Shown: positions 5,728-64,000, counted from the first letter of the stretch. The stretch is 64,000 nt of DNA from Candidatus Peregrinibacteria bacterium CG11_big_fil_rev_8_21_14_0_20_46_8 (GCA_002796025.1 PCVQ01000003.1:2238-66237); one strand, 5' to 3'. Made by a program: numbers and translations. Notes: generated from the sequence alone by a model not told the origin.

Positions 5728-6171
5728 ATGCAGAATCTTGTTGTTACCATATACAATCGTACCCGCACAAAAGTTCCTCTAAAACCTTTTGAAGAGCTGT
5801 TGGCTCCGGCTACAAAAATTTTGTTGCGAGAAAAAAAGCTTCGCAAGGATGAGCAACTTAAATTTGAACTAAGTTTAATCGGCGATACGGCTATGCAGAC
5901 GCTTAATAAAACGGTGCACTATAAAGACCGTCCGACGGATGTTGTTTCACTGAGTTATTACGAAGAGCATAGCGGTGATAATTTTGTGGGAGAAATTTTT
6001 ATCGCTCTTCCGTATGCTCGCCGGCAGGCAAAAAAAATAGGCCAATCTCTTAAAGAAGAGTTGCGCTTCTTGTTTGTACATGGTTTGCTCCATATTTTTG
6101 GTTACGACCATATGGAGCCCAAACAAGAGCAGGTTATGTTGGCGCTGACGTATGAGATACTGGAGAGATAA
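5728..6171 (+). CDS. ybeY: rRNA maturation endoribonuclease YbeY
   Basis: Zinc motif HGLLHIFGYDH near the C-terminus; size 147 aa. Confidence 0.9.
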   Translation: MQNLVVTIYNRTRTKVPLKPFEELLAPATKILLREKKLRKDEQLKFELSLIGDTAMQTLNKTVHYKDRPTDVVSLSYYEEHSGDNFVGEIFIALPYARRQAKKIGQSLKEELRFLFVHGLLHIFGYDHMEPKQEQVMLALTYEILER

Positions 6172-49351: not shown

Positions 49352-49441
49352 TGGCGGAGGGAGAGGGATTCGAACCCTCGGGACCCTTGCGGGCCCAACA
49401 GTTTTCAAGACTGCCGCATTCGACCGCTCTGCCATCCCTCC
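49352..49441 (-). tRNA. tRNA-Ser (TGA), long variable arm, CCA encoded
   Basis: Acceptor GGAGGGA/TCCCTCC, anticodon loop CTTGAAA, variable stem-loop GGGCCCGCAAGGGTCCC; 90 nt. Confidence 0.9.
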
Positions 49442-50677: not shown

Positions 50678-50959
50678 TCATTCAGGTGCATCAAGATGAT
50701 CTTGAATCAACTTTGCGAGTCCTTCTCCGGTGTGTACAAGGTTCGGAGTTTGCAGCAGATCTTCAATCTCGGTTGTTACTTGTTGTCCGGTTACTGTTTG
50801 CACCAAAAGAATCGCTCTGCTGCAATTTGCCCGTACAACTTCTTCCCGCGTAAAACGAACAGCTTCTCCAGTTTCCGGATCAATTACCTTAACACCTTCA
50901 TCTTCAAGCTCAGGAATTGTTTGACCTTTATATGTGAGTGGTTCTATCTCTGGACGCAT
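50678..50959 (-). CDS. possible 93-aa acidic protein translationally coupled to the Cys-rich gene
   Basis: The ATG at 50959 lies 1 nt after the upstream TGA (TGAcATG). Only this 3' part of the 181-aa track ORF avoids overlapping the upstream gene. Confidence 0.4.
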   Translation of the reverse strand: MRPEIEPLTYKGQTIPELEDEGVKVIDPETGEAVRFTREEVVRANCSRAILLVQTVTGQQVTTEIEDLLQTPNLVHTGEGLAKLIQDHLDAPE

Positions 50960-50960
50960 G

Positions 50961-52604
50961 TCAGTAGATTGCCGCAAGATAGCAGCCTTCGCAATAGATC
51001 TTCTGTTCGGGCCGGCCTGACTGGTATGCGCTCGTGATGCTCTTGTTACATTTTCCGCACGTGCGTTCCCCAAGCTGCCGCGGCGTGCGTAGTTGCATGC
51101 GTGCCGCATGGCGGCACAGGTCGCACTTGCGCGGAATCGGCAGATTTTTATTTTTGTAAAAGCGCAGCTCTTGAGAGATAACCTTATAATTTTTGTTGCA
51201 ATCTTCACAGGCGAGGATTTCATTGGTGATCATTGCTGGAACGTCTGCAATCGCATCGGGAATTTCACATGTTTGAGCTTGATACTCGCGCGCATCTTTA
51301 TCGCGCCAGGTATAGCCGCGTGCTTCTGTTTCATCCTTCTTAAGAGGAAAGTACTCCTGCGCAACAGTCTCGTTATATGCAAACTGTGCTCGCTCTGCCG
51401 GGAAAAACTCTCCCCATTCGCCGCTCTTTTTCATGTGTTCGATAATTTTCGTGCGCAGTTTTTCATACTCCTCCTTTGTATACTGCTTATTTAAAATGCA
51501 GTACTTCTTTTTGTTTAATCCCACACAGCCAAAGCAGTCGCTCGAGCTGTTGCACATCTCGCAATAAAAGCAGCTGGTACAGTAGTGGCTCGCCACGCAA
51601 AATGCCGAATAGCGCATCTGCAAGGTGCTGATGCACTCGTATGCAACTTCTGGATGATAGAGTGAGTAATTTAAATCTTGGCATGTCTTTGCATCCAGAA
51701 CATCGTAGAGATATTTACAGTCTTCACTGTTGACCACATTGAAGCTGTCTGTCACATTTTTGCAATTTTTCAGATTATTGCCGCTCGAATTTTCGCAGTT
51801 TGTGATGTAAGCATCGCGGTGAATTGCATGTTGAGCGCGGAACTCATTCCACCCCTTGCGCGCCCGCTCTAAGCCGGAGTGCGTATCCAGCTTCATCGCC
51901 TTTAATTTTTCAAAGTACTCTTCTTTAGAATACGGTTTGTTATCGATGTAGTACTGTTTATTCCGCAGCCCGTAGCTAAAGAGACAGTTGTTGCAGCCCT
52001 TCATGTCGTAGCAAAAGAGCAGATCGGTGCTGTCGTCGCAGTACATGCAGAAGCTGCAGTTGTATGCATTATGACAGTTGATGCACTCGTAGCAGAGTGT
52101 CGATTTTTAGACAAATGTACAGTCGACACTGTCTTTGCAGTACTTAATGAACAGATTGTAGAAGCAGTCTTCGTTGCCTTCGCCGGCAATATCAAAGTAA
52201 CAATTTTTGTCGTCCCCGCAGTAGTTGCAGTAGTCACTGTTTTCGCAGTTGACGATATCCATGCTCAGGCGCGGCACCTCGCGCTGCAGTTCGGCAAACT
52301 GTTCAAAAAACGGTCGATTAAAATCAAAGTCGCGGCCGTAGTCCATAGGATCCCAGTCGTCGCTGTACCACTCACTTGGCGTGTAGATTTTAAACTGCGT
52401 ATCCGGTGGATACATCGAGATAATTGGCGAGCCGCTCTTGGCCGATTTCGCCCTATAAAAAGTCCGGTCATTCCGCCACGCCAGCCTGCACTGATTGCGG
52501 CACTGGGGGCAAAGTGTTGGATCTGTTACTCCGAGCTGGTCGTAGAGGGCGCGGTCTTCCGGTGCGATTTGGAAGTCTGTTGTGCATTGAGTGCAAATTT
52601 TCAT
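50961..52604 (-). pseudogene. Cys-rich multi-zinc-ribbon protein, paralog A, interrupted by one in-frame TAA (52107-52109)
   Basis: Track ORFs 52107..52604 and 50961..52046 are in the same frame. Together they align end to end with the intact paralog at 54008..55651. Confidence 0.75.
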
Positions 52605-52650
52605 GAGTATGAATGTTAAAAGTACTCAAATGGTAAAATCTTTTTTAAGA

Positions 52651-52706
52651 GTGGTAAATAGCACCACGTGGTGATTGTTGACACCACTCATATGATGCGG
52701 CATTAT
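52651..52706 (+). promoter_or_regulatory. divergent control region: GTGGT/ACCAC half-site array with a perfect 12-bp palindrome, plus candidate promoter
   Basis: GTGGT 52651-55; CACCACGTGGTG 52662-73; CACCAC 52682-87; TTGACA 52678-83, 17-nt spacer, CATTAT 52701-06; ATG at 52715. Confidence 0.35.
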
Positions 52707-52714
52707 GGGCTCAT

Positions 52715-53467
52715 ATGTTTGCTTCTGTTTTTCAGGAAATCGGGCTTTCTCCAAATGAGGCTAAAATCTATGAGGCGCTTTTACAGGTTGGGGTGGCCAG
52801 CGTCAGCACCATTTCGATCAAATCGAATATTCACCGCCGCAATATCTACGATGCGATAAATCGTCTTATTGAAAAAGGCCTTGTGTTTCAAATTATGGGA
52901 CAGGGTGAGAATCTTTTTAAGCCGGTTGATCCTGCAAAGCTTATGGAGCTTGTCGACGAAAAGCGCGCACTTCTCGACAGCGCTATGCCTAATCTGGAAA
53001 AGCTCTACAAAAAGAAGCCGCACGACGAAGCCGCCTATATTTATAAGGGCGTAGAGGGATTTAAAAACTACCTGCGCGACATTTTAAGTGTACAAGAGGA
53101 TGTTTGCTTTATTGGTGCCAAAGGCGCGTGGTTCGATCCGCGGCTTACTTCTTTTTTGGACCGCTTTCTTGTAGATGCAAAAAAACGCGGTGTGAAGTAT
53201 CGTCATATTTTTGACGCAGAAGTTAAAACACACGCAAAACATGTCCCGCGCTCGGTAGGGCGTCCATATAAATTTTTGCCAAAAAAATATTCGACTCCCT
53301 CAATGGTCGATATCTTTGGCGATCATGTGGTCTCTTTTACTGGCGCGGGCCTCTGCCAAATTAGCGACGACATCACCATCTTCGTGATCATCAGCCGCCC
53401 CATGGCCGACAGCTACCGCACATGGTTTCAGTTTATGTGGGATATGTGCCCGGAATATAAAGCGTAA
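52715..53467 (+). CDS. TrmB-family transcriptional regulator
   Basis: N-terminal winged HTH GLSPNEAKIYEALLQVGVASVSTISIKSNIHRRNIYDAINRLIEKGLV, followed by a C-terminal effector-type domain. Confidence 0.8.
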   Translation: MFASVFQEIGLSPNEAKIYEALLQVGVASVSTISIKSNIHRRNIYDAINRLIEKGLVFQIMGQGENLFKPVDPAKLMELVDEKRALLDSAMPNLEKLYKKKPHDEAAYIYKGVEGFKNYLRDILSVQEDVCFIGAKGAWFDPRLTSFLDRFLVDAKKRGVKYRHIFDAEVKTHAKHVPRSVGRPYKFLPKKYSTPSMVDIFGDHVVSFTGAGLCQISDDITIFVIISRPMADSYRTWFQFMWDMCPEYKA

Positions 53468-53470
53468 TTT

Positions 53471-53932
53471 TTATCGATACACCGCCGGCTTTCGTACAGG
53501 CACTGGTTTCTTCGGTTGAACTTTTAAGCAATCTCGTCGTGCATCGATGAGCGGTGTTTTTTCGCCGGTAGCCGGATCTACTCCATCAAGTTTTGTTTCA
53601 ACTGACAGAACAGCACTGCTCCACTTGCTTGAAAATTGATCAACATTAACGCTGCCTATAAATCCTTTTCCCGTGATGCGGATGGCACCGGTTTCTCTAT
53701 CTTCCTTGAAGTTCTGAGCATTATCCATAAGCATATTTTCAATTTCCATCTGTAATGAAGCGCACGATGGCATTGGCTCTTTTTGTGCACGCTCGAGTAC
53801 ATCGATAAGCCGATCTCTCACTTCACGCGAGACTCCCGGATATTCGTACGGCCTTGTATTTGCCGACACGGTAGAACAGCCGGCAATTGCTGCTGCTAAG
53901 GCGGGGATAGCATTTCTAAAATTTAGAGACAT
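53471..53932 (-). CDS. lipoprotein, unknown function
   Basis: Lipobox AIAGC; 153 aa. Lies downstream of paralog B on the same strand. Confidence 0.7.
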   Translation of the reverse strand: MSLNFRNAIPALAAAIAGCSTVSANTRPYEYPGVSREVRDRLIDVLERAQKEPMPSCASLQMEIENMLMDNAQNFKEDRETGAIRITGKGFIGSVNVDQFSSKWSSAVLSVETKLDGVDPATGEKTPLIDARRDCLKVQPKKPVPVRKPAVYR

Positions 53933-54007
53933 GGAGGTGATGTAGTAAATAAATTAGTGGGTTACTCTATATATAGAATTCCAATCCGTCAAGTTTCCAA
54001 GGGTTCT

Positions 54008-55651
54008 TTAGGAGAGGCATCCCAAATAGCATTTTTCACAGTAAATTTGCTCAGGCCGCTCTGGTGCGTACGGCGATTGCAGTTCAGTGTTGCATTTTGT
54101 GCACTGTCTCTGCCAGAGTTTTTTGGGATTTGTAAGGGCCAAGCGGTCGAGTGCGCGTTGGCGCCACTCGCGTCGGGGCAGGGGAATATTCATTTTTTTA
54201 TAAAAGTTTAATTCTTGTTCGATGATACGGTAGGGTTTGTTGCTTGCCTCGCAAATGAGCGTTTGTTCCAAAATAGAGTTGTCTATGTCGTGGATATTGT
54301 TCGGAATAGCCGTGCTTGTTGCGCGCTCTTCGCGGCTGGCGTCATCCTCCCATCTCCATCCTTGTGCAAGCGCTTCTTCCTTTTTGAGAGGATAGTACAC
54401 ACTCGCAACTGAATTGTTGTATGGAAAAGTTGATAAACTTTTTGGCAAAAACTGACCCCACTCGCCCGTACTTTTCATATGTTCGATAATGCGCGGCACC
54501 AATTCTTCCCACTCACTCTTCGTATACTGCTTGTTCAAAATACAGTACGATTTATTTTTTAATCCCACACAGCCAAAGAGATAATGCGAGCCGGTTGGGG
54601 TTAGGTCGCAGTAGGTAACATTGTCTGAATTTACGGTCATATATGAGTATCGTACATTGTATGCTGTATCGGTTGAGATGTTATTGAAGACTAGCTCGCT
54701 CGATTCACCCACATATTCACTGTTATAGCAGTCCTTAATATTCAGTCCCATGAAGACGCGGCGGCAATCCTCTCCGCCAAAAACTTCGTAACATTCGGTA
54801 CAGTTTTTTGTGTGAGAGAGGAGATCTCCGGTCGAGTTTTCGCTCTGCAAGATGCGCGCGTATTTTACTATGCGCTCTTGCCGCTTCTTTTTGAATTCTT
54901 CCCAAAGTTGCTGCTGCGTTGTATAGCTTCCATTCATCAGCTCTGCTTTGCGCCGAAAATATTCCTCTTTTGTATACTGTTTATTCTCAATCACATACTG
55001 ACGGTTTCGTAGATTAAAGCTCATAATGCAGTCCTTCGAGCCGATGCAGTCTTCGATGAAGTAACAGTCGGTGCAGCTCTTTGAATTGAATGCGAACTGG
55101 CAGCCGTAGCAGTTCTCTAAAAATGCCGAGAAGTAGCAGAGCTCGCATTTTATCGTCCAGTCGCAGTCAACGCAGTCCACGCTTTCCATAGGCAGAATCC
55201 CGTACAAACAGTCTTCGTTGCGGTCGCCGCCCACAATTAAATAGGAGTTTTTGTTGTAGACGCAGGAGTTGCAGTACTCGCTATTTGTTGAGCCTATGTT
55301 TACAAGTGCTACCCGCGGCACACGCTTCTGTATTTCTGCGAACTGCTCAAAAAATGGGCGACTAAAATCATACGGCTGGCCAAATTCCAGGGGATCCCAT
55401 GCATCACTCATCCAGTATTCGCGTTCATACACTTTGTACGGCGCATCATTCGCATACATCGAGATAATTGTTTTTTCGGTGCCGTCGCACCTACGTTTGT
55501 GCAAAAAACGGTCGTTTCGAAAACTTAATCGCCACTGCTGTTGATGAGGAAAACATACATTCCAAACCGGCGCGGCGAATTTTGCATACGATGCAATATC
55601 TTCGTCGCTTAATGTGAATTCATGCCCTCCAATGGAACATAATAAATTCAT
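54008..55651 (-). CDS. Cys-rich multi-zinc-ribbon protein, paralog B (intact, 547 aa), unknown family
   Basis: No signal peptide, dozens of Cys in CxxC-type spacing, an internally duplicated core ending in NKQYTKEEY-like strings, and a C-terminal double zinc ribbon. Confidence 0.85.
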   Translation of the reverse strand: MNLLCSIGGHEFTLSDEDIASYAKFAAPVWNVCFPHQQQWRLSFRNDRFLHKRRCDGTEKTIISMYANDAPYKVYEREYWMSDAWDPLEFGQPYDFSRPFFEQFAEIQKRVPRVALVNIGSTNSEYCNSCVYNKNSYLIVGGDRNEDCLYGILPMESVDCVDCDWTIKCELCYFSAFLENCYGCQFAFNSKSCTDCYFIEDCIGSKDCIMSFNLRNRQYVIENKQYTKEEYFRRKAELMNGSYTTQQQLWEEFKKKRQERIVKYARILQSENSTGDLLSHTKNCTECYEVFGGEDCRRVFMGLNIKDCYNSEYVGESSELVFNNISTDTAYNVRYSYMTVNSDNVTYCDLTPTGSHYLFGCVGLKNKSYCILNKQYTKSEWEELVPRIIEHMKSTGEWGQFLPKSLSTFPYNNSVASVYYPLKKEEALAQGWRWEDDASREERATSTAIPNNIHDIDNSILEQTLICEASNKPYRIIEQELNFYKKMNIPLPRREWRQRALDRLALTNPKKLWQRQCTKCNTELQSPYAPERPEQIYCEKCYLGCLS

Positions 55652-55689
55652 GGCACCTTATTATACCAATATGGTAATCTGTTCGAAGT

Positions 55690-56052
55690 ATGAAAAAAAT
55701 AATTCGCTTTGTTTGTTTGCTGCTGGTTGTTGTTTTTCTTTTTGCGGCCTGTAATGCCGATACCGAAAAAGATATATCTGCTGCCGATGATGCTGTACAG
55801 CTGGCCGAAGGCGCTTGGGGGAATCTGACATGTTACGAGTATATTGATGCGCGACGCGAAACGCTCGAACGCGAGCGCGGTATTGAGCAGATATTGCGAA
55901 CATATCGTGAGCGTGCACGTAATAAAGATGCAGATTTTTTTGCTTTTAATCAAAAAACACAACAGCAGCTTTTTACAACGTATCAAGGTATTGAGCGTGC
56001 TTTGCATATAGAGATGCAGCGTTGCCTTGGCGCCCAGCTTCGTCCTCAATAA
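55690..56052 (+). CDS. small lipoprotein, unknown function
   Basis: Lipobox LFAAC; 120 aa, helical composition. Confidence 0.65.
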   Translation: MKKIIRFVCLLLVVVFLFAACNADTEKDISAADDAVQLAEGAWGNLTCYEYIDARRETLERERGIEQILRTYRERARNKDADFFAFNQKTQQQLFTTYQGIERALHIEMQRCLGAQLRPQ

Positions 56053-56109: not shown

Positions 56110-59100
56110 TTACCGGTGATGTTTGGCATGCCGCCGGTTACGGCGCTTGCTTTGTGAGACATAAAAGCAGGTCGCTGCAGTGAGAATAACAAGTACTGCA
56201 GCCGCGACTTCAGGTTCAGCACGCTTCGCCAATAATTTATGCGGCGATGTTACGGTATCACCTGGCTCGCGCGCAGCAACTAATGTGAATTTTGAGAGAC
56301 TTGAGAGCTTACCGACACATGTATTTGTTGCAATATCACAAGTGGTAGGCAGCGGTGTACAGTTTTGAGAGTTTTTCTTAAAGCTGCAAACTTTAATAGT
56401 TCTTACCCACTCAGCCTCGGTGGTATCGGACGGAATGTCGCTGTCGGCATAGGTCATACTAATAGTTGCCGCACTGCCTCCGGAAGTTTGCAGTGTGGTA
56501 ACCGGCTGACCGTTTACCGTTGAGGTGACCTCGATACCTTTACCGCCAATAACTTGATAAGTGCTTGTTGATTGCGGTACTGCGGTTGTTTCTTTTACTA
56601 CGACGCTACCGTCATTATTTTGGGAATTACCGAGCGCACCGGCAGGGAAGTTAATCTCAACACCGGCATCACGTACTACTGCGCCGCGTGACGGCTGCAA
56701 TGTTTGCGTGCGTTGTTCTCGGCGTGTGTATCCTGCAATAGCAAGGAGCTCGAGATTCTGTGTGGTTGCATCGCCTTCGGCAAGCGTCACCGTAGTTGAG
56801 GCTGATTTAAAGCCGTCTCCTATTGCGGTAATAGTCCAGGTGCCTGGTGTAAGCGAGAGTGTATAGTTCGTGCTGGCGCTATCGGATGCCGCTAAATCGA
56901 CATTTGCAATCGTTGTCTGGCCATTTTCTAATGAAGCCTGTACAACAGTATCGCTGTTTACATTTTCTGTTGTATCTAATGTGCCGTCGCTATCATCGTC
57001 TTTCCAGACACGGCCTGTGATTGTCGCATTTGCTCGAACGAGTACTCGCTCTATGCCGCTTGCACTTGCCCCGTCAATTGTTACCGTAGAGGGCTCTTCG
57101 CTATCAGTACAGCCGGCTTTGGTCGCAGTTACTGCAAAGCTTCCTTCCGGTACGTTTGCAATAGACCATGTGCCGTCATCATTGACTTCTGTTGTAGCGG
57201 ATCGTCCGGTGTCACCGTCATAAATGTAAACTGCAGCACCTCCGACACACGAAGTAGATGTCGAACTTACTGTTCCGGAAATCGAATACGTTTCGGATTG
57301 CGAAAAGTTCACATATGTTGTGGCCCCGCCGGTAATGCTTACATTTTCTTTTTGACCAAGGAAGCCAATTGCATGATGATTTCCCTCAATTGTATAGGTG
57401 CCTTCCGGTACGGAGAATTCATAGACACCTGGATCGGATGATGAAGTTCCTGTGCTTCTGCCGCTGGAATCAAATGCAGAGACCCATCCGTCAGAAACGG
57501 TGTTTGAAGCACAACCATTTGATGCACTTGGATCGGAATCCGGATCATTCAATGTACATGCATACACCACTACAGTTCCGGTCTTTGCTGTCTTCAGGTT
57601 AACGCCTGTAGTATTGCTACTATATGTTTGACTTGAGAGAGATTGGGTCGGGCCTTGTGATGGGATAAAGCCTTCAACGTTGTAGCCGCTGCCTGCTGCA
57701 AGCTGCATGGTATAGGTACCATCGGAACTGGTAAATGCACTATTGTAGCCTCCAGTTGTATCGCTCCATGCATTTACAAATGAGTTGCCCGCGCCCTCAC
57801 CGGAATCTACGGAATTATTTCCGTTGCTATCTATATACACCGTTCCGCTGATGGTTACACAGCTGTCACTCTGCGATTGGATATTCTTAGAAGTTAAATT
57901 AGTGCCAGCTACAACCGAAACGGTAATCGAAGGCATCGCACCACAACTTGATTGTGCGAAAGCGCTGATCTTCCAGCGTTTTGGGCTGCCACTTGTTCCT
58001 CCGGAAACAAAGAGCGTGTAGTTCCCGTTTGCATCGGTCGATGCACCCGTCCATCCGCCAATCGGTTCGCCGTCTGCGTTAACCTGATTTGCCGTTACAT
58101 AACTATAGCTTATTGCATTGCCGGCATCATCGAGTACTTTTCCGGATACAGATGTATCCGGCTTTGCAATTACTAAGACGAGATCGTCTTCGTTTGCAGT
58201 GCCCGATAATGTTGCACTTGAGAAGCCGCCTACATTGTTTTCGATGAACTCACTATCACAGTAGACGTCGGCAGTACTATTGCCATCAGAGGTCGACTCG
58301 TTATCTTTTACATCACATTCCATGAAGTTTGACTCCGGCATGCCGGGTTTGAATGCATGAAGATCGTATGTGCCCGGTGTAACATTTATTGTAAAGAGCC
58401 CATTTGTATCTGATTGTGCGAAGCCTCCCCAGAAGCTCTGTTCGCCGAAATTGAGTGGATGGGCATTTACATACGCACTCTTAATCGCAGCTCCGTTTCC
58501 ATCCACAACTTTACCCTTAATTTGATATGTTGCTGCAGTGATGGTAAAGCAGAGTTCGTTGTCCGTTGCGCCAGATCCGCTTGTACATTTATCAACCACA
58601 CCCTGTGAAGTTACCACAACTTCTTCAGGCGCTGGCGGTACGAAATCTACCGTTTGTGATGTGCCTGAGAATGACGGGCCGACATTTATCATCCACTTAC
58701 CTTTCGCGAGGGACAATGTTGTCGTGCCTATTCCGCTGCCATTCAAGGTAACTGTTTTTGGTGGAATATAGCCGCCAAAATTGCTGCCGAACTCTTCTGC
58801 TGCGAATGAACCGTTTTGTGTAGTACTCGCATCTCCACCATGAAATGTTTCTGTGCGTTCATTCACATCGCCGAGACGGAATGCATAGACATCAACCTTT
58901 TTATTTGCGAGCCCGCTGCCGCCGCTTAAATATACATCAAGTATATTTTGAGAACTTACGGCGCTCACGGTAAAGTTACTGTTGTTTGCGCTCTCACCAC
59001 TTGCTAGATAAATATCTTTAAATGTATTAGATGCAAGATAGCTGCTATTTGTCGGCAGCTCCATATTTATAAAGTAGTAGCTGTTGTCGTAAAGATTTGG

Positions 59101-62100
59101 GAATGTATAGTAGCCGTCCGCATCAGTTGTTTTACATTCATAACCGGTAGGGCCGCTCAAACATACTTTTGCACTTTCTACGCGCGCTTCGCCGCCATTA
59201 GGCAGCTTGTCGCCGGCTGTCCCGCCTGATGCGCCATCGTCGACAAAGACATATCCGGATATGGTGCTTGAACCTGCCGCCAAAATAAAGAACGGCATAG
59301 TTGTTTTTGTTTCAAGCGTTGTGCCGCCAGAATTTTTCGTTGTTATATCGATTGTGTAGCCAGTGGTATTGTAATCTTTCGCAACCGGTGAATTTGTTAC
59401 CGGGAAATTGAATTCAAGGAAGTCGCCGGCATTAATATCTGTACCATTAATGGTAATGGTTACTTTGCGTGTGCTGCTATCACAGCTGATGCTTGCAACT
59501 GTCACTGTTCCATCGTGCCAGCCGTTAATGTCGGTATTTGCAAAATCAGTTGTGCTCCATGTATTACAGCTGCTCGGAAAGGTGAATCCGCTTGGGAAGG
59601 CCAGTTCAATTGTGCCGTTTTCTGGAATTGTTGTTCCGGCTTCAAAGTAGAACCAGTATTTTGTTGTTGCTCCTGCGACGTTTGATTCTGACCAGGTATT
59701 AACCGGACTAATGCCCCAATTGTACCAATCGGTGCCATCAGTCGTTGTAGTGCCATCAAGATTAGTTCCGGCATAATCGTAGTTTGCATCATTAATATCG
59801 TTGACAATTGCTTGCAGCGTATTCGATGCCGAATCCATGGCATTGCCCGCATAATCTACGAGGAATGTACTTGGTGTAACTCTGAAGAGCGACAACGGAG
59901 GCATACCGATACCTGAGAATTTGACCTTCAAGGCGATTGGATCGTAAACCACAGAAACTTGATCGAATGGAGTATGTACGTTCCATGACTGGCCATCATC
60001 AAAGCTGGTTTCGATCGTCCAATTGTTAAAGTTATTTACATCACTGCTGCCTGAGCTTGTTGAGTTTTCATAGTTTTTTGCAGCATCGAACGGCATAGGT
60101 TCAGAAAGGTAAACGGTAATTGAGTCGTTATCACCGTTAATACTTGTGACCGAAGGTGCAGTTGTATCGTTTGCTGAGCCATCAATGAGGCCGTTTGTGG
60201 TGAATGTTATTGTTTGCTGTGTTGCAGCATTACCCGCAGCATCGGCAATACCCCAGGCCGAATTATATGGATTTGTAACTAAAAAGTATGTGCTGTTTGC
60301 AGCGAGCAGCGCATTCGGATACACATGTACGGCTCGTCCATCTCCTTCTATTAATCCGCTGGTATTTGTTACGAGTGTATCGTCATGTCTGTCGAATGTG
60401 CTGTCCCCATTATCTAAATAGAGTGAGAGACCTACATTTAAATTAGTCACCGAACCTCCAGAGCTAAATGACTGAAAGAAGCGTGTGCCATCGATCGGTT
60501 CGTTAAACGTAACGATCATATCGCTAATGCGTCGGTCAACCGTAGCGCCTTCTTGAGGATATGATGATTCAATTTGAGGACCCGTACTATCATTGGCTGC
60601 CGTCGAAAAATCAAGCTGATACTCTCGCTCGAGCGCGATACCCCGGTTTGAAACTACACAAGCTTCCGGAAGGCCGAATCCGCAGCTTCCGTTGCGCGGA
60701 TCGGTATCGTTATCTCCTTGAATTTCGAGCGTATAGGTATTACCACTTGTTACGCTTTCTGGAAGCGGAATACGCACGCGTGTCGTTTGTCCGGACGATG
60801 TCGTTGTCCAGCCGGATGTCGATGTTAACAGATTGCTGCCTGTTGTCTCGCCAAATGAATTCAGTGCAAAGAGCCGGAAGTTCTCCGTTTGCAATGCGTT
60901 ACTGTCGAGTGGCACGGAGAAACTAATAATCAGTGAGCCGTTCTCTGCAATGTTTCCACCATGAAATGGTACGGTACCGGTTACATACGGTGGAGGTACA
61001 TAGTCGATGAAGCCGGTAAAAGTATATGTAGACGAGCTAAATGGAGGCCCGATACCTAGCGAACTAACACCTTGATCGATGGTTGTGGCTTGGTCGGCCT
61101 GAATGGTTGCGATCGCAATCAAAACATTATCTTCGATCGGTGGATTAATGATTTGTGCATCACCAAGTGCGCCTTTATTTGCGTGCGCACCAATTCGAAT
61201 CTCTACAGCTGATCCTGCTGAGATACCCGTAGTGCTGTTAAGGTCAATAATAACGACGTTCGGTGAAGTAAAGGTTACGCCATCTTCGGTTGAAGTCGCA
61301 GTTGCTGCAAGTTTGCGGTGTGAATCGGTTACGAGCAGGTCGACATCACCTGCATCGAGAGCACTACTAAACGTAAAATCATTATTTTCAAAATCCGGAG
61401 CGAATACTACGATGATCTGTCCACTCGCTGGAATATCATTTACAGTTGTAAATCCGAATGTCCAGTTGCTGCCTTCACCTGCCGCCGTGTTACTGCTTGT
61501 AGTTGTAACCGTTAGAGTTCCAGTCGAAGAAGCTGTAGTGATGACCATTGTTGTTGAGCCTTCGTCGAGTTTTGATCCGGCGTCATTTTGAGTGGTAATA
61601 GTAATGGTGTAATCTCCTGCGGTTGCAGGGTTTGTCATTTGTCTGTCGCCTGTTGCTCCTTCTAATGCATTAAGTCCAATTGTTATATCTACAGGCATGC
61701 CCGCATTAATGCTTGTGCTGGAATTTAATTCGATATCAAATGTAGTCCCGGTAATACTTACACCGTCCTCACTTGTGGAAGCAGTTGCTGCAAGTGTTCG
61801 AGGAGAGCCATTAACCGTAAGATCAACATCTGTATAGTCGAGCCCAAATTCGGGCGTAAAAGAAGAATCAAAAGCCACGATAATATGTCCGCCCGCTGGA
61901 ATTTTGCTTGTTGTTGTGAATGAAAGGGTATGATTTGTATTTGCTGATTCTGTGTCGTCAGGTGCTGAATCGGTTACCGCAATACTATTTACAGTAGTTA
62001 TTGTATTAGTAGTACTTCCTGTATCGATTGTTGTCGCGGTCACATTGTTCTGTGTTGTTACTGTAGTCGTGTATGTACTAGCACTCACAGGATTTGTATA

Positions 62101-64000
62101 TTGATCATCTCCTGCGAACTCTTCGACTGCATTTGTACCAATACGGATACTTACACTTGATCCCGCGCTAATTCCGCTTGATGAATTTAATTGAATGGTG
62201 ATGGCATTGTTGCTTACCGATACGCCGTCTTCTGTTGTTGAGGCAAAGCTAGAGAGTGATCGCGAAATTCCGTCAACAAGCAGGTCAATGTCGGTATAAT
62301 CTAAAAAGCCGCTTTGGCTAAAACTTGGATCAAGCGTTATGGCGATATATCCATCGGCCGGGATCGCATTGACTGTAGTAAATGCCAGGGTATGATTTGC
62401 CGGTTGAGATGTTTCGGACGTGCTGAGCGTATCACTGAGCGTACTGGAAAGATCACCAATGCCAGCATTGATAGTAACCGTTGTGGAGCCGCTATCGAGA
62501 TTGCTGGAGCTCGCATTTTGTGTCTGTATGCTTGTTGTTTTTGAGCCTGATGTGCTCGGTGTAGTATACTGAAGATCTCCGAATGTTTCTGAGCTTGCAT
62601 TCGTACCAACACGCAACTCTACATTTGATCCTGCAGAGATGCCAGTCGATGAATTAAGCGCAACGATAATTGTGTTGTCGATTATTGCGACACCATCATT
62701 TGTACTATCCGCACTTGCTGCCAAGTTGCGTTCGAAAAAATCTACAGCAAAATCTACATCGGTATAATCCATACCCGATGCAGGTACGAAGCCGCTGTCG
62801 AGTGTATACACAATTGTACCTCCGGCAGGAATTGCATTCACGGTATTAAAAGAAATCGTCATATCTGTGGATGTCGATGCATCTGAGCTTGAAAGTGTAT
62901 GCGAAAGCGTACTAGTTACATCGCCGGGATTAATGACTGCCGAAGTAATATCAATAGTTGTATTGCCTGAATCAAGTGTGCTTCCGAGGCTGTCTTGAGT
63001 TACTACTAGAGTATTATAGGTGCTTGCGGAACTAGGATTCGTATATTGAGCATCTCCGCTTCCGCCATAAATTGAGCTGAGACCGATGGTTATCTCTACT
63101 GCGGATGCCGCAGGAATTGGGCTCGAGCTTTGGAGCTCAATGGTAACCGTATTGCTGTCAATTGTTACGGCGTCGACAAAGCTGCCTGCTGGTGCACCAC
63201 CGAGGTCGCGGCTGCTTAAGTCTACTAATAAATCAACATCTGTATAGTCTAATCCTAATCCGGCAGTAAACCCTGGATCAAGCGTAATAACTATGTAACC
63301 ACTTGCCGGTATCTCGGCAATAGTGGTGAAGTTTATTCGTATGTCCGAGGCCTCACCCGAAGTGGTGCTATCGATATTCGTATGCGTAAGTGTACCGGAA
63401 ATATCACCGCCTCCAACGGCTTCAGTAATTGTTTCGGTATAATTTGCGCTGTCCATTGATACACCAAAATTATCGTAGGTTGTAACGCTATTAATGTAGT
63501 CACCGGCAACGCTAGGATTATAAAGGAGGGTATCGCCAATTGATCCCGAAGTCGCATTTGTGCCAATGCGCACTTCTACGGATTGTCCGCTGGTAATACC
63601 AGTGGTGTCGCTCATTTGTATTGTTATAGTTGGGAAGGAAATACTTACTCCATAATCGGAAGTGCCCGGAAATGATGCGAGTGATTGTTGTACGTCATCA
63701 ACCAACACATCGATATCATCGATGCCGATGAAGTCTGTATCCGCATAGCCATTTGCAAAAGTAATTTCAAAAAAGCCGCCGGCTGCGGGAATATCTTGAG
63801 TGGGCCAGAAGCTAATGCTGTGGTTTGTTGCAGCACTGGTGGTGGTATCATCCGGTATAGAAGTGACTGAGAATAAAACTACTTCATTAAGTATGCTTGC
63901 TGTAGCGCTGCCGGTTTCGAGTTGCGCCGAAAATTCATCGTACGTTGTGACATCAACTGTTGTATCTCCTTCGAGCGAAGGGTTATAAAGGCTTGCATCG
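56110..64000 (-). CDS. giant cell-surface protein (>2629 aa; N-terminus beyond the window edge): tandem ~160-aa modules, SbsA/Big-type Ig domains, carboxypeptidase-regulatory/Cna-B-like domains, C-terminal TM anchor
   Basis: The frame stays open from the track start (GTG at 63708) to nt 63999 and continues the repeat pattern (NHSISFWPTQDIPAAGGFFEITF...IDDIDVLVDD). The C-terminus is AAAVLVILTAATCFYV followed by KRRNRRHAKHHR. Confidence 0.9.
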   Translation of the reverse strand, partial: DASLYNPSLEGDTTVDVTTYDEFSAQLETGSATASILNEVVLFSVTSIPDDTTTSAATNHSISFWPTQDIPAAGGFFEITFANGYADTDFIGIDDIDVLVDDVQQSLASFPGTSDYGVSISFPTITIQMSDTTGITSGQSVEVRIGTNATSGSIGDTLLYNPSVAGDYINSVTTYDNFGVSMDSANYTETITEAVGGGDISGTLTHTNIDSTTSGEASDIRINFTTIAEIPASGYIVITLDPGFTAGLGLDYTDVDLLVDLSSRDLGGAPAGSFVDAVTIDSNTVTIELQSSSPIPAASAVEITIGLSSIYGGSGDAQYTNPSSASTYNTLVVTQDSLGSTLDSGNTTIDITSAVINPGDVTSTLSHTLSSSDASTSTDMTISFNTVNAIPAGGTIVYTLDSGFVPASGMDYTDVDFAVDFFERNLAASADSTNDGVAIIDNTIIVALNSSTGISAGSNVELRVGTNASSETFGDLQYTTPSTSGSKTTSIQTQNASSSNLDSGSTTVTINAGIGDLSSTLSDTLSTSETSQPANHTLAFTTVNAIPADGYIAITLDPSFSQSGFLDYTDIDLLVDGISRSLSSFASTTEDGVSVSNNAITIQLNSSSGISAGSSVSIRIGTNAVEEFAGDDQYTNPVSASTYTTTVTTQNNVTATTIDTGSTTNTITTVNSIAVTDSAPDDTESANTNHTLSFTTTSKIPAGGHIIVAFDSSFTPEFGLDYTDVDLTVNGSPRTLAATASTSEDGVSITGTTFDIELNSSTSINAGMPVDITIGLNALEGATGDRQMTNPATAGDYTITITTQNDAGSKLDEGSTTMVITTASSTGTLTVTTTSSNTAAGEGSNWTFGFTTVNDIPASGQIIVVFAPDFENNDFTFSSALDAGDVDLLVTDSHRKLAATATSTEDGVTFTSPNVVIIDLNSTTGISAGSAVEIRIGAHANKGALGDAQIINPPIEDNVLIAIATIQADQATTIDQGVSSLGIGPPFSSSTYTFTGFIDYVPPPYVTGTVPFHGGNIAENGSLIISFSVPLDSNALQTENFRLFALNSFGETTGSNLLTSTSGWTTTSSGQTTRVRIPLPESVTSGNTYTLEIQGDNDTDPRNGSCGFGLPEACVVSNRGIALEREYQLDFSTAANDSTGPQIESSYPQEGATVDRRISDMIVTFNEPIDGTRFFQSFSSGGSVTNLNVGLSLYLDNGDSTFDRHDDTLVTNTSGLIEGDGRAVHVYPNALLAANSTYFLVTNPYNSAWGIADAAGNAATQQTITFTTNGLIDGSANDTTAPSVTSINGDNDSITVYLSEPMPFDAAKNYENSTSSGSSDVNNFNNWTIETSFDDGQSWNVHTPFDQVSVVYDPIALKVKFSGIGMPPLSLFRVTPSTFLVDYAGNAMDSASNTLQAIVNDINDANYDYAGTNLDGTTTTDGTDWYNWGISPVNTWSESNVAGATTKYWFYFEAGTTIPENGTIELAFPSGFTFPSSCNTWSTTDFANTDINGWHDGTVTVASISCDSSTRKVTITINGTDINAGDFLEFNFPVTNSPVAKDYNTTGYTIDITTKNSGGTTLETKTTMPFFILAAGSSTISGYVFVDDGASGGTAGDKLPNGGEARVESAKVCLSGPTGYECKTTDADGYYTFPNLYDNSYYFINMELPTNSSYLASNTFKDIYLASGESANNSNFTVSAVSSQNILDVYLSGGSGLANKKVDVYAFRLGDVNERTETFHGGDASTTQNGSFAAEEFGSNFGGYIPPKTVTLNGSGIGTTTLSLAKGKWMINVGPSFSGTSQTVDFVPPAPEEVVVTSQGVVDKCTSGSGATDNELCFTITAATYQIKGKVVDGNGAAIKSAYVNAHPLNFGEQSFWGGFAQSDTNGLFTINVTPGTYDLHAFKPGMPESNFMECDVKDNESTSDGNSTADVYCDSEFIENNVGGFSSATLSGTANEDDLVLVIAKPDTSVSGKVLDDAGNAISYSYVTANQVNADGEPIGGWTGASTDANGNYTLFVSGGTSGSPKRWKISAFAQSSCGAMPSITVSVVAGTNLTSKNIQSQSDSCVTISGTVYIDSNGNNSVDSGEGAGNSFVNAWSDTTGGYNSAFTSSDGTYTMQLAAGSGYNVEGFIPSQGPTQSLSSQTYSSNTTGVNLKTAKTGTVVVYACTLNDPDSDPSASNGCASNTVSDGWVSAFDSSGRSTGTSSSDPGVYEFSVPEGTYTIEGNHHAIGFLGQKENVSITGGATTYVNFSQSETYSISGTVSSTSTSCVGGAAVYIYDGDTGRSATTEVNDDGTWSIANVPEGSFAVTATKAGCTDSEEPSTVTIDGASASGIERVLVRANATITGRVWKDDDSDGTLDTTENVNSDTVVQASLENGQTTIANVDLAASDSASTNYTLSLTPGTWTITAIGDGFKSASTTVTLAEGDATTQNLELLAIAGYTRREQRTQTLQPSRGAVVRDAGVEINFPAGALGNSQNNDGSVVVKETTAVPQSTSTYQVIGGKGIEVTSTVNGQPVTTLQTSGGSAATISMTYADSDIPSDTTEAEWVRTIKVCSFKKNSQNCTPLPTTCDIATNTCVGKLSSLSKFTLVAAREPGDTVTSPHKLLAKRAEPEVAAAVLVILTAATCFYVSQSKRRNRRHAKHHR

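Follow-up and report, generated by a model that had tools for sequence, protein, structure and literature searches.

A very large, apparently undescribed family of Cys-rich cytoplasmic proteins in Patescibacteria, encoded in arrays beside a TrmBL2-like regulator

Characterised TrmB proteins are sugar sensors. The beetle antifreeze protein TmAFP is a Cys-rich β-helix with 12-residue coils and two regularly spaced cysteines per coil; it is secreted and disulfide-bonded, and these cysteines lie six residues apart. Left-handed β-helix proteins such as LpxA/LpxD, GlmU and γ-carbonic anhydrase are built from 18-residue coils. Type IV secretion systems (T4SS) are widespread among Patescibacteria, in which 5,713 VirD4-like genes have been counted, just 148 of them near virB4 (PMC12102498). 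Here we analyse two genes of a family of ~550-aa cytoplasmic proteins that shares individual features with each of these groups or is encoded beside genes that do. Both lie in a stretch of 64,000 nucleotides that was analysed as a whole and is referred to below as the window.

The family is very large, and its named sources are almost all Patescibacteria (CPR). Searches gave more than 5,729 matches at 90% clustering; at 50% identity there were 5,597 clusters, and 2,338 of these lay below E 1e-30; the labels of 78 genome loci with family members are almost all those of Patescibacteria classes, and among 2.9 million viral contigs there was a single partial match. Length, architecture and ~40–55% identity are kept across CPR classes. 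The first-pass annotation could assign the proteins to no named family, and this is borne out for both window copies by searches of Pfam, NCBIfam and PADLOC and of the PDB, by sequence as well as by fold, none of which returned a match above threshold; the PADLOC models of anti-phage defence components, for example, matched neither paralog B nor the C-terminal piece of paralog A. The family appears to be so far undescribed and unnamed, and merits experimental follow-up.

Paralog B (54008..55651, minus strand; NCBI COV82_00470, annotated "hypothetical protein") has an uninterrupted ORF of 547 aa, is matched by the family profile at E 5e-254 and is identical (100%) to a protein from Candidatus Peregrinibacteria (P0001). 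Paralog A (50961..52604, minus strand) is of the same family and length and can be aligned with B from end to end at 41% identity (E 2e-143), as the initial description of two paralogous genes of equal size had it; the strings listed as shared (RPFFEQFAE[LI]Q, NEDC[FL]Y, CILNKQYTK, IIEHMK and GEWG[EQ]F) all occur in both. The length and frame of A agree with that description, but the gene is not intact: translation reveals an in-frame TAA at codon 166 (52107..52109, minus strand; the next base is A, giving a TAAA context) that divides it into pieces of 165 and 361/381 aa, annotated by NCBI as separate genes (the 165-aa piece is COV82_00455). The family profile matches both pieces (positions 2–165, E 6e-65; positions 169–546, E 2e-132). 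The identical break is present in an independently recorded JGI contig (L001), and there are six comparable in-frame stops in family copies of other genomes. A and B are old paralogs, of which B is intact and A is broken by a nonsense codon. Their description as Cys-rich cytoplasmic proteins is correct, with 29 cysteines including 8 CxxC motifs in B, 43 including 16 CxxC in A, a pI of ~5.6 for each, and neither a hydrophobic segment nor a signal peptide found in the two sequences.

Each protein is shown by profile comparison to have an M-S-S-M build, in which basic double zinc-ribbon end modules (M) surround two homologous acidic β-solenoids (S). The M module, of ~77 aa, begins with a treble-clef CxxC...CxxC finger and continues as a CxxC-x17-CxxC ribbon, and the S unit is a helix-capped solenoid of ~125 aa. 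In hhalign comparisons, residues 3–79 (M1) match 465–541 (M2) with a probability of 99.6% (E 8e-24) and residues 117–240 (S1) match 266–390 (S2) with a probability of 99.6% (E 5e-24); the negative control gave 0.6%. In the C-terminal module two CxxC pairs, C517/C520 and C538/C541, show no variation among 55 sequences, with the ~17–25-residue spacing of zinc ribbons; A additionally has CTQC...CPQC and CEDC...CDLC, and B has lost most ligands at both of these sites. The early label "multi-zinc-ribbon" is thus apt for the two terminal modules, but most cysteines reside in the repeat solenoid. S1 carries one CxxC in every 12-residue coil, and Cys–Cys distances within residues 113–225 are nearly always multiples of 3, with peaks at 3, 9 and 12. 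The number of cysteines ranges from 24 to 42 among 55 members, and only ~13 S1 columns contain Cys in at least half of them; since many solenoid cysteines differ between paralogs and several are gone from B, metal binding in S1 is putative. The AlphaFold2 (AF2) model of B (pLDDT 88, pTM 0.87) has S2 strands with a 6-residue period, and its confidence is lowest at residues 121–210 (pLDDT 59–74). Net charge is +3 for M1, +6 for M2 and −4 for each solenoid, with a median of −7 for whole proteins. Conservation is highest in M2 and in the Cys-poor segments 80–112 and 373–435, the solenoids and linkers being more variable, and many polar residues are invariant, including R45, Q103, S124, D162, N223, N373, Y376 and E480.

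Divergent from A across a spacer of exactly 110 bp, palindrome-bearing as had been noticed at the outset, lies a gene (52715..53467, plus strand) for a TrmB-family, TrmBL2-like regulator consisting of a winged HTH, a coiled helix and a C-terminal domain of the PLD fold. It scores 58 bits with PF01978 (TrmB; cut-off 25.6, E 9e-16), and its AF2 model (pLDDT 89.5) has both domains in common with TrmBL2 (5bpd, Foldseek E 1e-13 over 268 columns) and TrmB (3qph, E 5e-10); for the C-terminal domain the matches are to Nuc/NucT/Zucchini (E 1e-6 to 2e-5; PLD fold TMt 0.6–0.69). In comparisons with the NCBIfam equivalog models for the characterised TrmB, TrmBL1 and TrmBL2, the best score, 35.6 bits, fell far short of the cut-off of 650.

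The spacer holds a composite palindromic operator (52649..52689), GAGTGGT-N7-CACCACGTGGTG-N8-CACCACTC. Its two side-by-side GTGGT-N7/10-ACCAC inverted repeats (52651–52687), compared with 0.04 expected, are the only occurrences of this pattern in the whole window. A promoter-like site of the regulator gene (52678..52706, plus strand), TTGACA-17-CATTAT, has its −35 box within the operator and its −10 box ending 8 nt ahead of the ATG; it was located by a consensus scan (10/12 matches) in which site totals were no higher than in shuffled sequence. At the equivalent position another locus (L086) has TTGACA-N18-TATAAT. The operator overlaps the promoter region of the regulator's own gene, and we infer repression. 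A near-identical 38-bp operator precedes TrmB orthologues in three other genomes (L086, L087 and L088), where the remainder of the spacer differs, and TGTAGAAAnnTTTCTACA is found in 21 of 32 TrmB/family spacers, within ~25 nt of the TrmB start. A single genome (L014) has several TrmB paralogs with differing operator variants. Within the window the operator adjoins only the broken paralog. B seems to be transcribed separately: an extended −10-like box, TGGTATAAT (55660..55668, minus strand), can be read 8 nt upstream of its ATG, with no TrmB operator beside it.

Around these genes the first-pass annotation had proposed a dedicated five-gene system that also included a lipoprotein and a small acidic protein. 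The local observations are accurate. The 153-aa lipoprotein-like ORF (53471..53932, minus strand; lipobox-like AIAGC) lies downstream of B and is co-directional with it, a 93-aa acidic ORF (50678..50959, minus strand; pI 4.5) starts 1 nt past the TGA of A in a TGAcATG junction, and the giant ORF nearby is open through to the end of the window. The tight spacing and the shared orientation favour such a system. Against it, A contains an internal stop codon, B has no operator, and among 83 related loci homologues of the two small ORFs were found only in contigs with an identical B. Family searches with the lipoprotein-like ORF gave no match, its homologues being confined to contigs that also carry B at 100% identity, and homologues of the 93-aa ORF occur in the window and L001 only; such contigs, that is, represent this same population or one very close to it. 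Neither ORF is a conserved partner, the lipoprotein-like one being a local passenger, and a five-gene unit is extremely unlikely.

A survey of 83 loci from other genomes indicates what does recur. Family genes stand in tandem, with as many as 12 copies to an array, so that their pairing in the window is incidental. TrmB is present in 39 loci, and 45 of the 57 TrmB genes adjoin a family member that is transcribed divergently; the linkage to TrmB is therefore conserved and, like the M-S-S-M anatomy, well supported. In gene order, family genes constitute tandem, often overlapping operons beside a divergent TrmBL2-like regulator, and in L004 neighbouring genes share boundary nucleotides, which indicates operons. 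The one other recurrent neighbour in the 83 loci is a soluble VirD4/TraD-like ATPase, present in 25 of them (~30%), mostly at the array end, and directly following the array in 15 of the 59 arrays with enough downstream sequence; no homologue was found within the window. It scores above the cut-offs for T4SS-DNA_transf (PF02534, 37.6 bits against 20.1), TrwB_AAD_bind (PF10412, 37.5 against 20.5) and TraG-D_C (PF12696, 23 against 22). No 19-residue stretch reaches a mean hydropathy above 1.6, so that no transmembrane segment was found. The ATPase also has a 300-aa N-terminal domain to which no function is assigned, and it gives weak matches to TraD and CedD models.

Gene order and the pattern of conservation suggest, with a probability of about 0.35, that zinc stabilises the Cys-rich proteins and that they act with this ATPase in recognition or as adaptors. 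The conserved end modules and segments 80–112 and 373–435 would bind a partner that all members share, which could be nucleic acid or the hexameric ATPase, and the more variable solenoid faces would give every paralog its own target. An array would thereby equip a cytoplasmic motor that handles DNA or protein with specificity subunits that can replace one another. Several observations sit uneasily with an adaptor role: the ATPase is seen in only ~30% of the sampled loci and not in the window, its linkage may come from common regulation or mere synteny instead of a physical association, the Cys-rich proteins as a whole are acidic, which is untypical of nucleic-acid binders, and the Magasanikbacteria locus L087 has an orthologous TrmB with the window-type operator and no family gene alongside. 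In a more ambitious and rather doubtful form of the proposal, the proteins would be exchangeable zinc-stabilised subunits of a CPR-specific cytoplasmic machine built around a soluble, "orphan" VirD4-like ATPase, and S1 would represent a new metal-ladder β-solenoid fold, with the CxxC of each 12-residue coil binding a row of metals. If true, a machine of this kind would account for thousands of Patescibacteria coupling-protein genes that lie far from secretion systems.

The metal, redox or nucleic-acid function originally proposed for the proteins is a possibility. In its metal-handling or redox form, Zn or Fe-S centres would line the CxxC ladder in a row, and the proteins would act as a store, buffer or electron conduit; the cytoplasmic location, the abundance of cysteines in all 55 members, their strict three-residue register and the drop in AF2 confidence exactly at the would-be metal region are what such a protein should display. 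The small number of conserved S1 cysteine columns, several of them lost in B, the paucity of Cys in the best-conserved segments and the placement of TrmB outside the known metal-sensor families make this improbable, and it accounts neither for arrays made up of divergent paralogs nor for the ATPase linked to them. An enzymatic role is unlikely, though less so: solenoids derived from hexapeptide-type acyl- or nucleotidyl-transferase helices would act on paralog-specific small-molecule or sugar substrates, with operons switched by metabolite-sensing TrmB paralogs. Consistent with this, the sole fold matches, in PDB and viral models, are left-handed β-helix enzymes such as LpxD, GlmU and γ-carbonic anhydrase, many polar residues are invariant, one genome combines several regulator paralogs with different operator variants, sugar sensing is established for TrmB proteins, and one family member (P0252) has a GNAT acetyltransferase domain at its N terminus. 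These fold matches are weak, however (E ≥ 7e-4, TM 0.07–0.25, rmsd above 9 Å), neither A nor B matches Hexapep in Pfam at E ≤ 0.1, the repeat period is 12 rather than 18 residues, and a recognisable catalytic motif is absent; the regulator is closer to TrmBL2, which has no sugar domain, than to TrmB, and the GNAT fusion is a single case that may be a gene-calling artefact.

Effector repertoires are typically multi-paralog arrays, which the family arrays resemble, and the adjoining T4CP-family ATPase, with its TraG-D_C partner-recognition domain, could be a coupling protein that passes the Cys-rich proteins as secreted effectors through a T4SS to the host cell of an episymbiont, the more so as these systems are common in Patescibacteria. 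The probability of this is low, given that the ATPase lacks a membrane anchor, that no further T4SS gene recurs around the arrays and that most coupling-protein genes of these bacteria are remote from virB4. The family's constancy across CPR classes is also unlike that of fast-evolving effectors, and tightly folded zinc modules at both ends would make poor translocation substrates. Still less probable is a structural role in which the solenoids stack into cytoplasmic, bactofilin-like filaments or scaffolds and the paralogs form mixed polymers. Two solenoids per chain, the equal length of paralogs and a high copy number for genomes of ~1 Mb would suit it; TrmB control and the ATPase link would both go unexplained, and the capping of the solenoid ends by helices and terminal modules in a compact model argues against head-to-tail stacking.

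Compared with described proteins, the end modules share their CxxC...CxxC pattern with zf_Tbcl (PF13451), zf_Tbcl_2 (PF23477), TIGR04272 and the second finger of LIM/CRP proteins, and show sub-threshold matches to CRP/LIM chains of the PDB (E 3e-3). Some family members reach zf_Tbcl-type models in precomputed Pfam matches, whereas the window copies score below the cut-offs (B, 18.7 against 27 bits for PF23477 and 16.9 against 36 for TIGR04272; A, 17.6 against 24 for PF13451). These models span ~35–45 residues of a 547-aa protein, and because no function is assigned to such a module by itself, a resemblance to one does not give the family its name. The solenoids resemble left-handed β-helices in their short strands, 6-residue period and capping helix, and differ from them in the 12-residue, CxxC-bearing repeat; the best Foldseek match, at E 7e-4, is not superposable (TM 0.10/0.14, rmsd 16 Å), and no catalytic His or His3 zinc site of these enzymes was identified. 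With TmAFP, which is absent from the top 50 fold matches, they share the length of the coil and its two regularly spaced cysteines, but the family proteins are cytoplasmic and have CxxC spacing. The array ATPase has its P-loop domain in common with VirD4/TraD/TrwB, weakly resembles CedD, the archaeal DNA-translocating ATPase, and is distinguished from VirD4/TraD/TrwB by its soluble nature, its extra N-terminal domain and the lack of T4SS genes nearby. The window regulator, finally, matches Thermococcales TrmB/TrmBL2 in winged HTH, full-length fold, PLD-like C-terminal domain and position beside palindromic operators, but it is a bacterial (CPR) protein of 250 aa whose probable targets are genes of the Cys-rich family rather than sugar-metabolism genes.

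The two paralogous genes for Cys-rich proteins, A and B, lie on the minus strand of the window at 50961..52604 and 54008..55651, respectively. B is an intact reading frame of 547 aa whose exact match, in a Candidatus Peregrinibacteria MAG, is annotated as "hypothetical protein COV82_00470". A has the length and frame of B, as the first-pass annotation indicated in describing a gene of about 545 aa, but it is not intact: a single in-frame TAA at 52107-52109, overlooked at that stage, splits it in the ORF list into pieces of 165 and 361 aa. Once A is joined across this stop, the two proteins align end to end with 41% identity (E 2e-143), which bears out the proposed paralogy; all of the shared strings quoted earlier were found again, as was the richness in cysteine (29 Cys and 8 CxxC in B, 43 Cys and 16 CxxC in A). 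Both proteins have a pI of about 5.6 and are devoid of hydrophobic segments. Each is 54–58% identical to copies in other genomes, compared with 41% to one another; A and B are old paralogs. The break in A is also present in a JGI contig from the same population, and NCBI annotates the fragments separately (COV82_00455 and the neighbouring tag). Since both fragments still match the family profile strongly, the break looks recent, and we read it as a probable ordinary nonsense mutation. Selenocysteine insertion or another form of recoding was rejected, given that the stop is TAA rather than TGA and stands in a TAAA context, and that six similar in-frame stops in family copies from other genomes are scattered TAA, TAG or TGA codons.

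As originally supposed, the Cys-rich proteins are assigned to no named family by searches of Pfam, NCBIfam, PADLOC and the PDB. The only Pfam and NCBIfam matches were below threshold and lay at the protein ends, where they pointed to small treble-clef zinc modules; PHROGs gave one weak match, to a family of unknown function; and, when a 55-sequence profile was compared with all PDB sequences, only the last 30 residues matched, to the second finger of LIM/CRP (E 3e-3). The PADLOC models produced zero matches to the family, on which ground a defence system was rejected. AF2 gave a confident model of B (pLDDT 88, pTM 0.87), and a Foldseek search with it against PDB structures and viral models returned only weak left-handed β-helix matches, with E-values of at least 3.5e-4, TM-scores of 0.07–0.25 and rmsd above 9 Å. 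A true hexapeptide transferase was rejected on these TM-scores, the missing sequence signature and the 12-residue period of the solenoid. No solved relative, Pfam model or name for the family was found, nor was a description of it in full-text literature searches; a large survey of unknown genes includes just two Patescibacteria-specific clusters of unknowns at the phylum level, which are not described there (PMC9132574).

When segments of the family alignment were compared profile to profile, two internal duplications emerged, with residues 3–79 matching 465–541 (probability 99.6%, E 8e-24) and residues 117–240 matching 266–390 (probability 99.6%, E 5e-24), versus 0.6% for a control pair. The family therefore has a modular M-S-S-M build, where M is a zinc-ribbon end module and S a β-solenoid. 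Each M consists of a treble-clef CxxC...CxxC finger, a conserved RNxRxLYxRxC stretch and a second ribbon, in that order; only the C-terminal ribbon is invariant (C517, C520, C538, C541). Three canonical four-Cys sites are present in A and one in B, the N-terminus of which has a possible Cys2His2 remnant. Among the 55 sequences, Cys-Cys distances in solenoid 1 are nearly all divisible by three, and distances of 3, 9 and 12 are the most frequent, a pattern that implies one CxxC per 12-residue coil and approximately eight coils. Solenoid 1 is also the lowest-confidence part of the AF2 model, as expected if it was modelled without its metal ions. Net charge is positive in the M modules (+3 and +6) and negative in the solenoids (-4 each) and the linker (-5); conservation is highest at residues 80–112, 373–435 and in M2, the solenoids, inter-solenoid helices and linker being more variable. 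Two short variants of about 311–323 aa (locus L088, 2-793 and 898-1866) cover profile positions 99–419 only, that is, both solenoids without either zinc module. In one 731-aa family protein, P0252, a GNAT acetyltransferase domain is fused N-terminally to a full M-S-S-M body, which may hint at function or may be an artefact of gene calling.

The family is very large, apparently undescribed and, among the loci sampled, essentially confined to the CPR. A word-indexed search with B gave at least 5,729 matches, every one about 545 aa long and annotated as "hypothetical", and an exhaustive profile search, run over 1.84 billion cluster representatives, detected the family in 5,597 clusters, with E-values below 1e-30 for 2,338. 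A second search, starting from a family copy on a Saccharibacteria-labelled contig, gave at least 7,398 matches, the named ones listed including Wolfe-, Staskawicz-, Uhr-, Harrisonbacteria and similar groups; no Tn-seq link to gene essentiality in a cultivated CPR strain was possible through this copy, as the named matches listed were all uncultured Paceibacteria/Parcubacteria-type MAGs. Across GTDB, sampled at one genome per species, more than 580 stretches were confirmed, of which the best 78 carry Peribacteria/Peregrinibacteria, Gracilibacteria, Abawaca-, Nomura-, Staskawiczbacteria, Paceibacterota or Saccharibacteria labels, apart from a few labelled just "bacterium" and one labelled Woesearchaeota. 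The latter contig (L080) is short (5.1 kb) and of low coverage, and was binned as a DPANN archaeon; its two family copies could be due to mis-binning or to gene transfer among ultra-small lineages that occur together. A prophage or mobile-element origin of the locus was rejected on the basis of its flat GC content, its housekeeping neighbours and the single partial match to the family in the 2.9 million viral contigs of IMG/VR.

Gene neighbourhoods were surveyed in 83 loci (five long contigs and 78 genome loci). Family genes are arranged in tandem and in the same orientation, in arrays that reach 12 copies within 21 kb, and in several MAGs about ten copies are distributed over two or three contigs; neighbouring array genes often share boundary nucleotides, which points to operons. 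All-against-all clustering of the ORFs in these loci recovered only two other recurrent real families, a TrmB-type regulator and an ATPase. The regulator, whose linkage to the Cys-rich genes the first-pass annotation had proposed from the window, occurs in 39 of the 83 loci; 45 of its 57 copies are immediate divergent neighbours of a family member, and 31 lie inside arrays. When a family copy is adjacent to TrmB, its best match is as well in 13 of 35 cases, against a background of 16%, an enrichment too partial for strict orthology of gene position and subfamily. The same annotation had envisaged a five-gene system that included a lipoprotein (53471..53932, minus strand) and a 93-aa acidic ORF following A (50678..50959, minus strand). 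The lipobox AIAGC of the former and the TGAcATG junction of the latter are both present; homologues of the two occur only in contigs carrying the identical B protein, so that neither is supported as a partner, nor is the five-gene system. Divergent from B across a gap of 38 bp is another small ORF (120 aa; 55690-56052, plus strand) that resembles a lipoprotein gene, with a signal peptide ending in LFAAC; the gene calls of the JGI contig include it, and no family match to it was found. The giant repeat-rich surface-protein ORF (56110-64000, minus strand; more than 2,629 codons) does run open to the window end, the ORF tool listing an internal GTG start only, and on the other side of the locus a tRNA-Ser gene (anticodon tga; 49352-49441, minus strand) lies between the aldo-keto reductase and TspO genes.

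The regulator gene in the window (52715..53467, plus strand) is a genuine TrmB-family member (Pfam TrmB, 58 bits against a cut-off of 25.6). Its AF2 model (pLDDT 89.5) matches TrmBL2 over the full length (E 1e-13) and TrmB (E 5e-10), and its C-terminal domain has the phospholipase-D fold found in Nuc, NucT and Zucchini. Full-text searches found no paper joining "Candidate Phyla Radiation" with TrmB. Among 32 spacers between TrmB and family genes, 21 contain the 18-bp palindrome TGTAGAAAnnTTTCTACA, about 25 nt or less from the TrmB start. In a single genome (L014), three TrmB paralogs each have their own TGT...ACA palindrome variant (spacers 6479, 14141 and 18477), a sign that one array may contain regulator/operator pairs wired independently of each other.

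The window TrmB falls in another subgroup, which is highly conserved (identity of up to 80% across genomes), and its operator, GAGTGGT-N7-CACCACGTGGTG-N8-CACCAC, differs from the TGTAGAAAnnTTTCTACA type. The palindrome noted earlier in the 110-bp A/TrmB spacer resolves into two adjacent GTGGT-N7/10-ACCAC inverted repeats, a pattern absent elsewhere in the 64 kb (chance expectation 0.04). A 38-bp element of this kind is nearly unchanged 5' of orthologous TrmB genes in three other genomes (L086, L087, L088), where the flanking spacer is unrelated; it is a phylogenetic footprint. Because it overlaps the -35 box of the region's best promoter-like site, putative autorepression is the natural reading. 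The divergent neighbour of the ortholog is a family member in L086 and L088 and not in L087 (Magasanikbacteria; 5780-6003), where the same operator adjoins no family gene and the regulator may have other or additional targets. Upstream of B, a TGGTATAAT box lies 8 nt 5' of the ATG, and a pattern scan of the 64-kb window found no operator there; judged from operator positions, only the broken copy A seems placed for co-control with TrmB. Individual promoter and terminator sites are only suggestive, since their counts do not exceed those in shuffled sequence. A -10-like box ends just 8 nt before the ATG of both B (55660-55668) and TrmB (52701-52706), and the L086 ortholog has the same geometry, suggesting leaderless or nearly leaderless mRNAs.

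The family is also significantly linked to a soluble VirD4-like ATPase of about 750 aa, present in 25 of the 83 loci and located directly 3' of 15 of the 59 arrays with enough downstream sequence. The protein scores above the cut-offs for T4SS-DNA_transf, TrwB_AAD_bind and TraG-D_C, matches the TraD and CedD models weakly, and has no transmembrane segment in its sequence. One array-linked copy (L007, 16387-18639) matches phrog_5156, a phage family of unknown function, very strongly (E 7e-70) and the defence component mad8 weakly (E 4e-10). A 2025 survey of 2,918 Patescibacteria genomes counted 5,713 VirD4-like genes, just 148 of them near virB4 (PMC12102498), and the link with a membrane-less ATPase provides a concrete hypothesis for this puzzle, to which the literature has already drawn attention.

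How such proteins might act can be outlined from their architecture and neighbours. The conserved core and basic end modules would bind a shared partner, which would be nucleic acid or the ATPase, and the variable acidic solenoids would confer paralog-specific recognition. We give this adaptor model a probability of roughly one in three. Part of the data would also be accounted for if the proteins were enzymes, if they served as a metal store or in redox reactions, if they were secreted effectors, or if they assembled into a structural polymer.

With genomes of about 1 Mb, Patescibacteria have lost most of their biosynthetic capacity. Yet some of them keep ten or more copies of the 1.65-kb family gene, approaching 2% of the genome, so its function is presumably important, and the family seems characteristic of this poorly understood radiation. 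The conserved pairing with a TrmBL2-like repressor gives experiments a ready starting point, since the operator sequences have been defined, and the predicted solenoid with one CxxC per coil may represent a metalloprotein scaffold of a new type. Zinc ribbons, a β-solenoid, a TrmB regulator and a P-loop ATPase are familiar kinds of component; for the protein family, and for the cassette taken in its entirety, there is no known counterpart.
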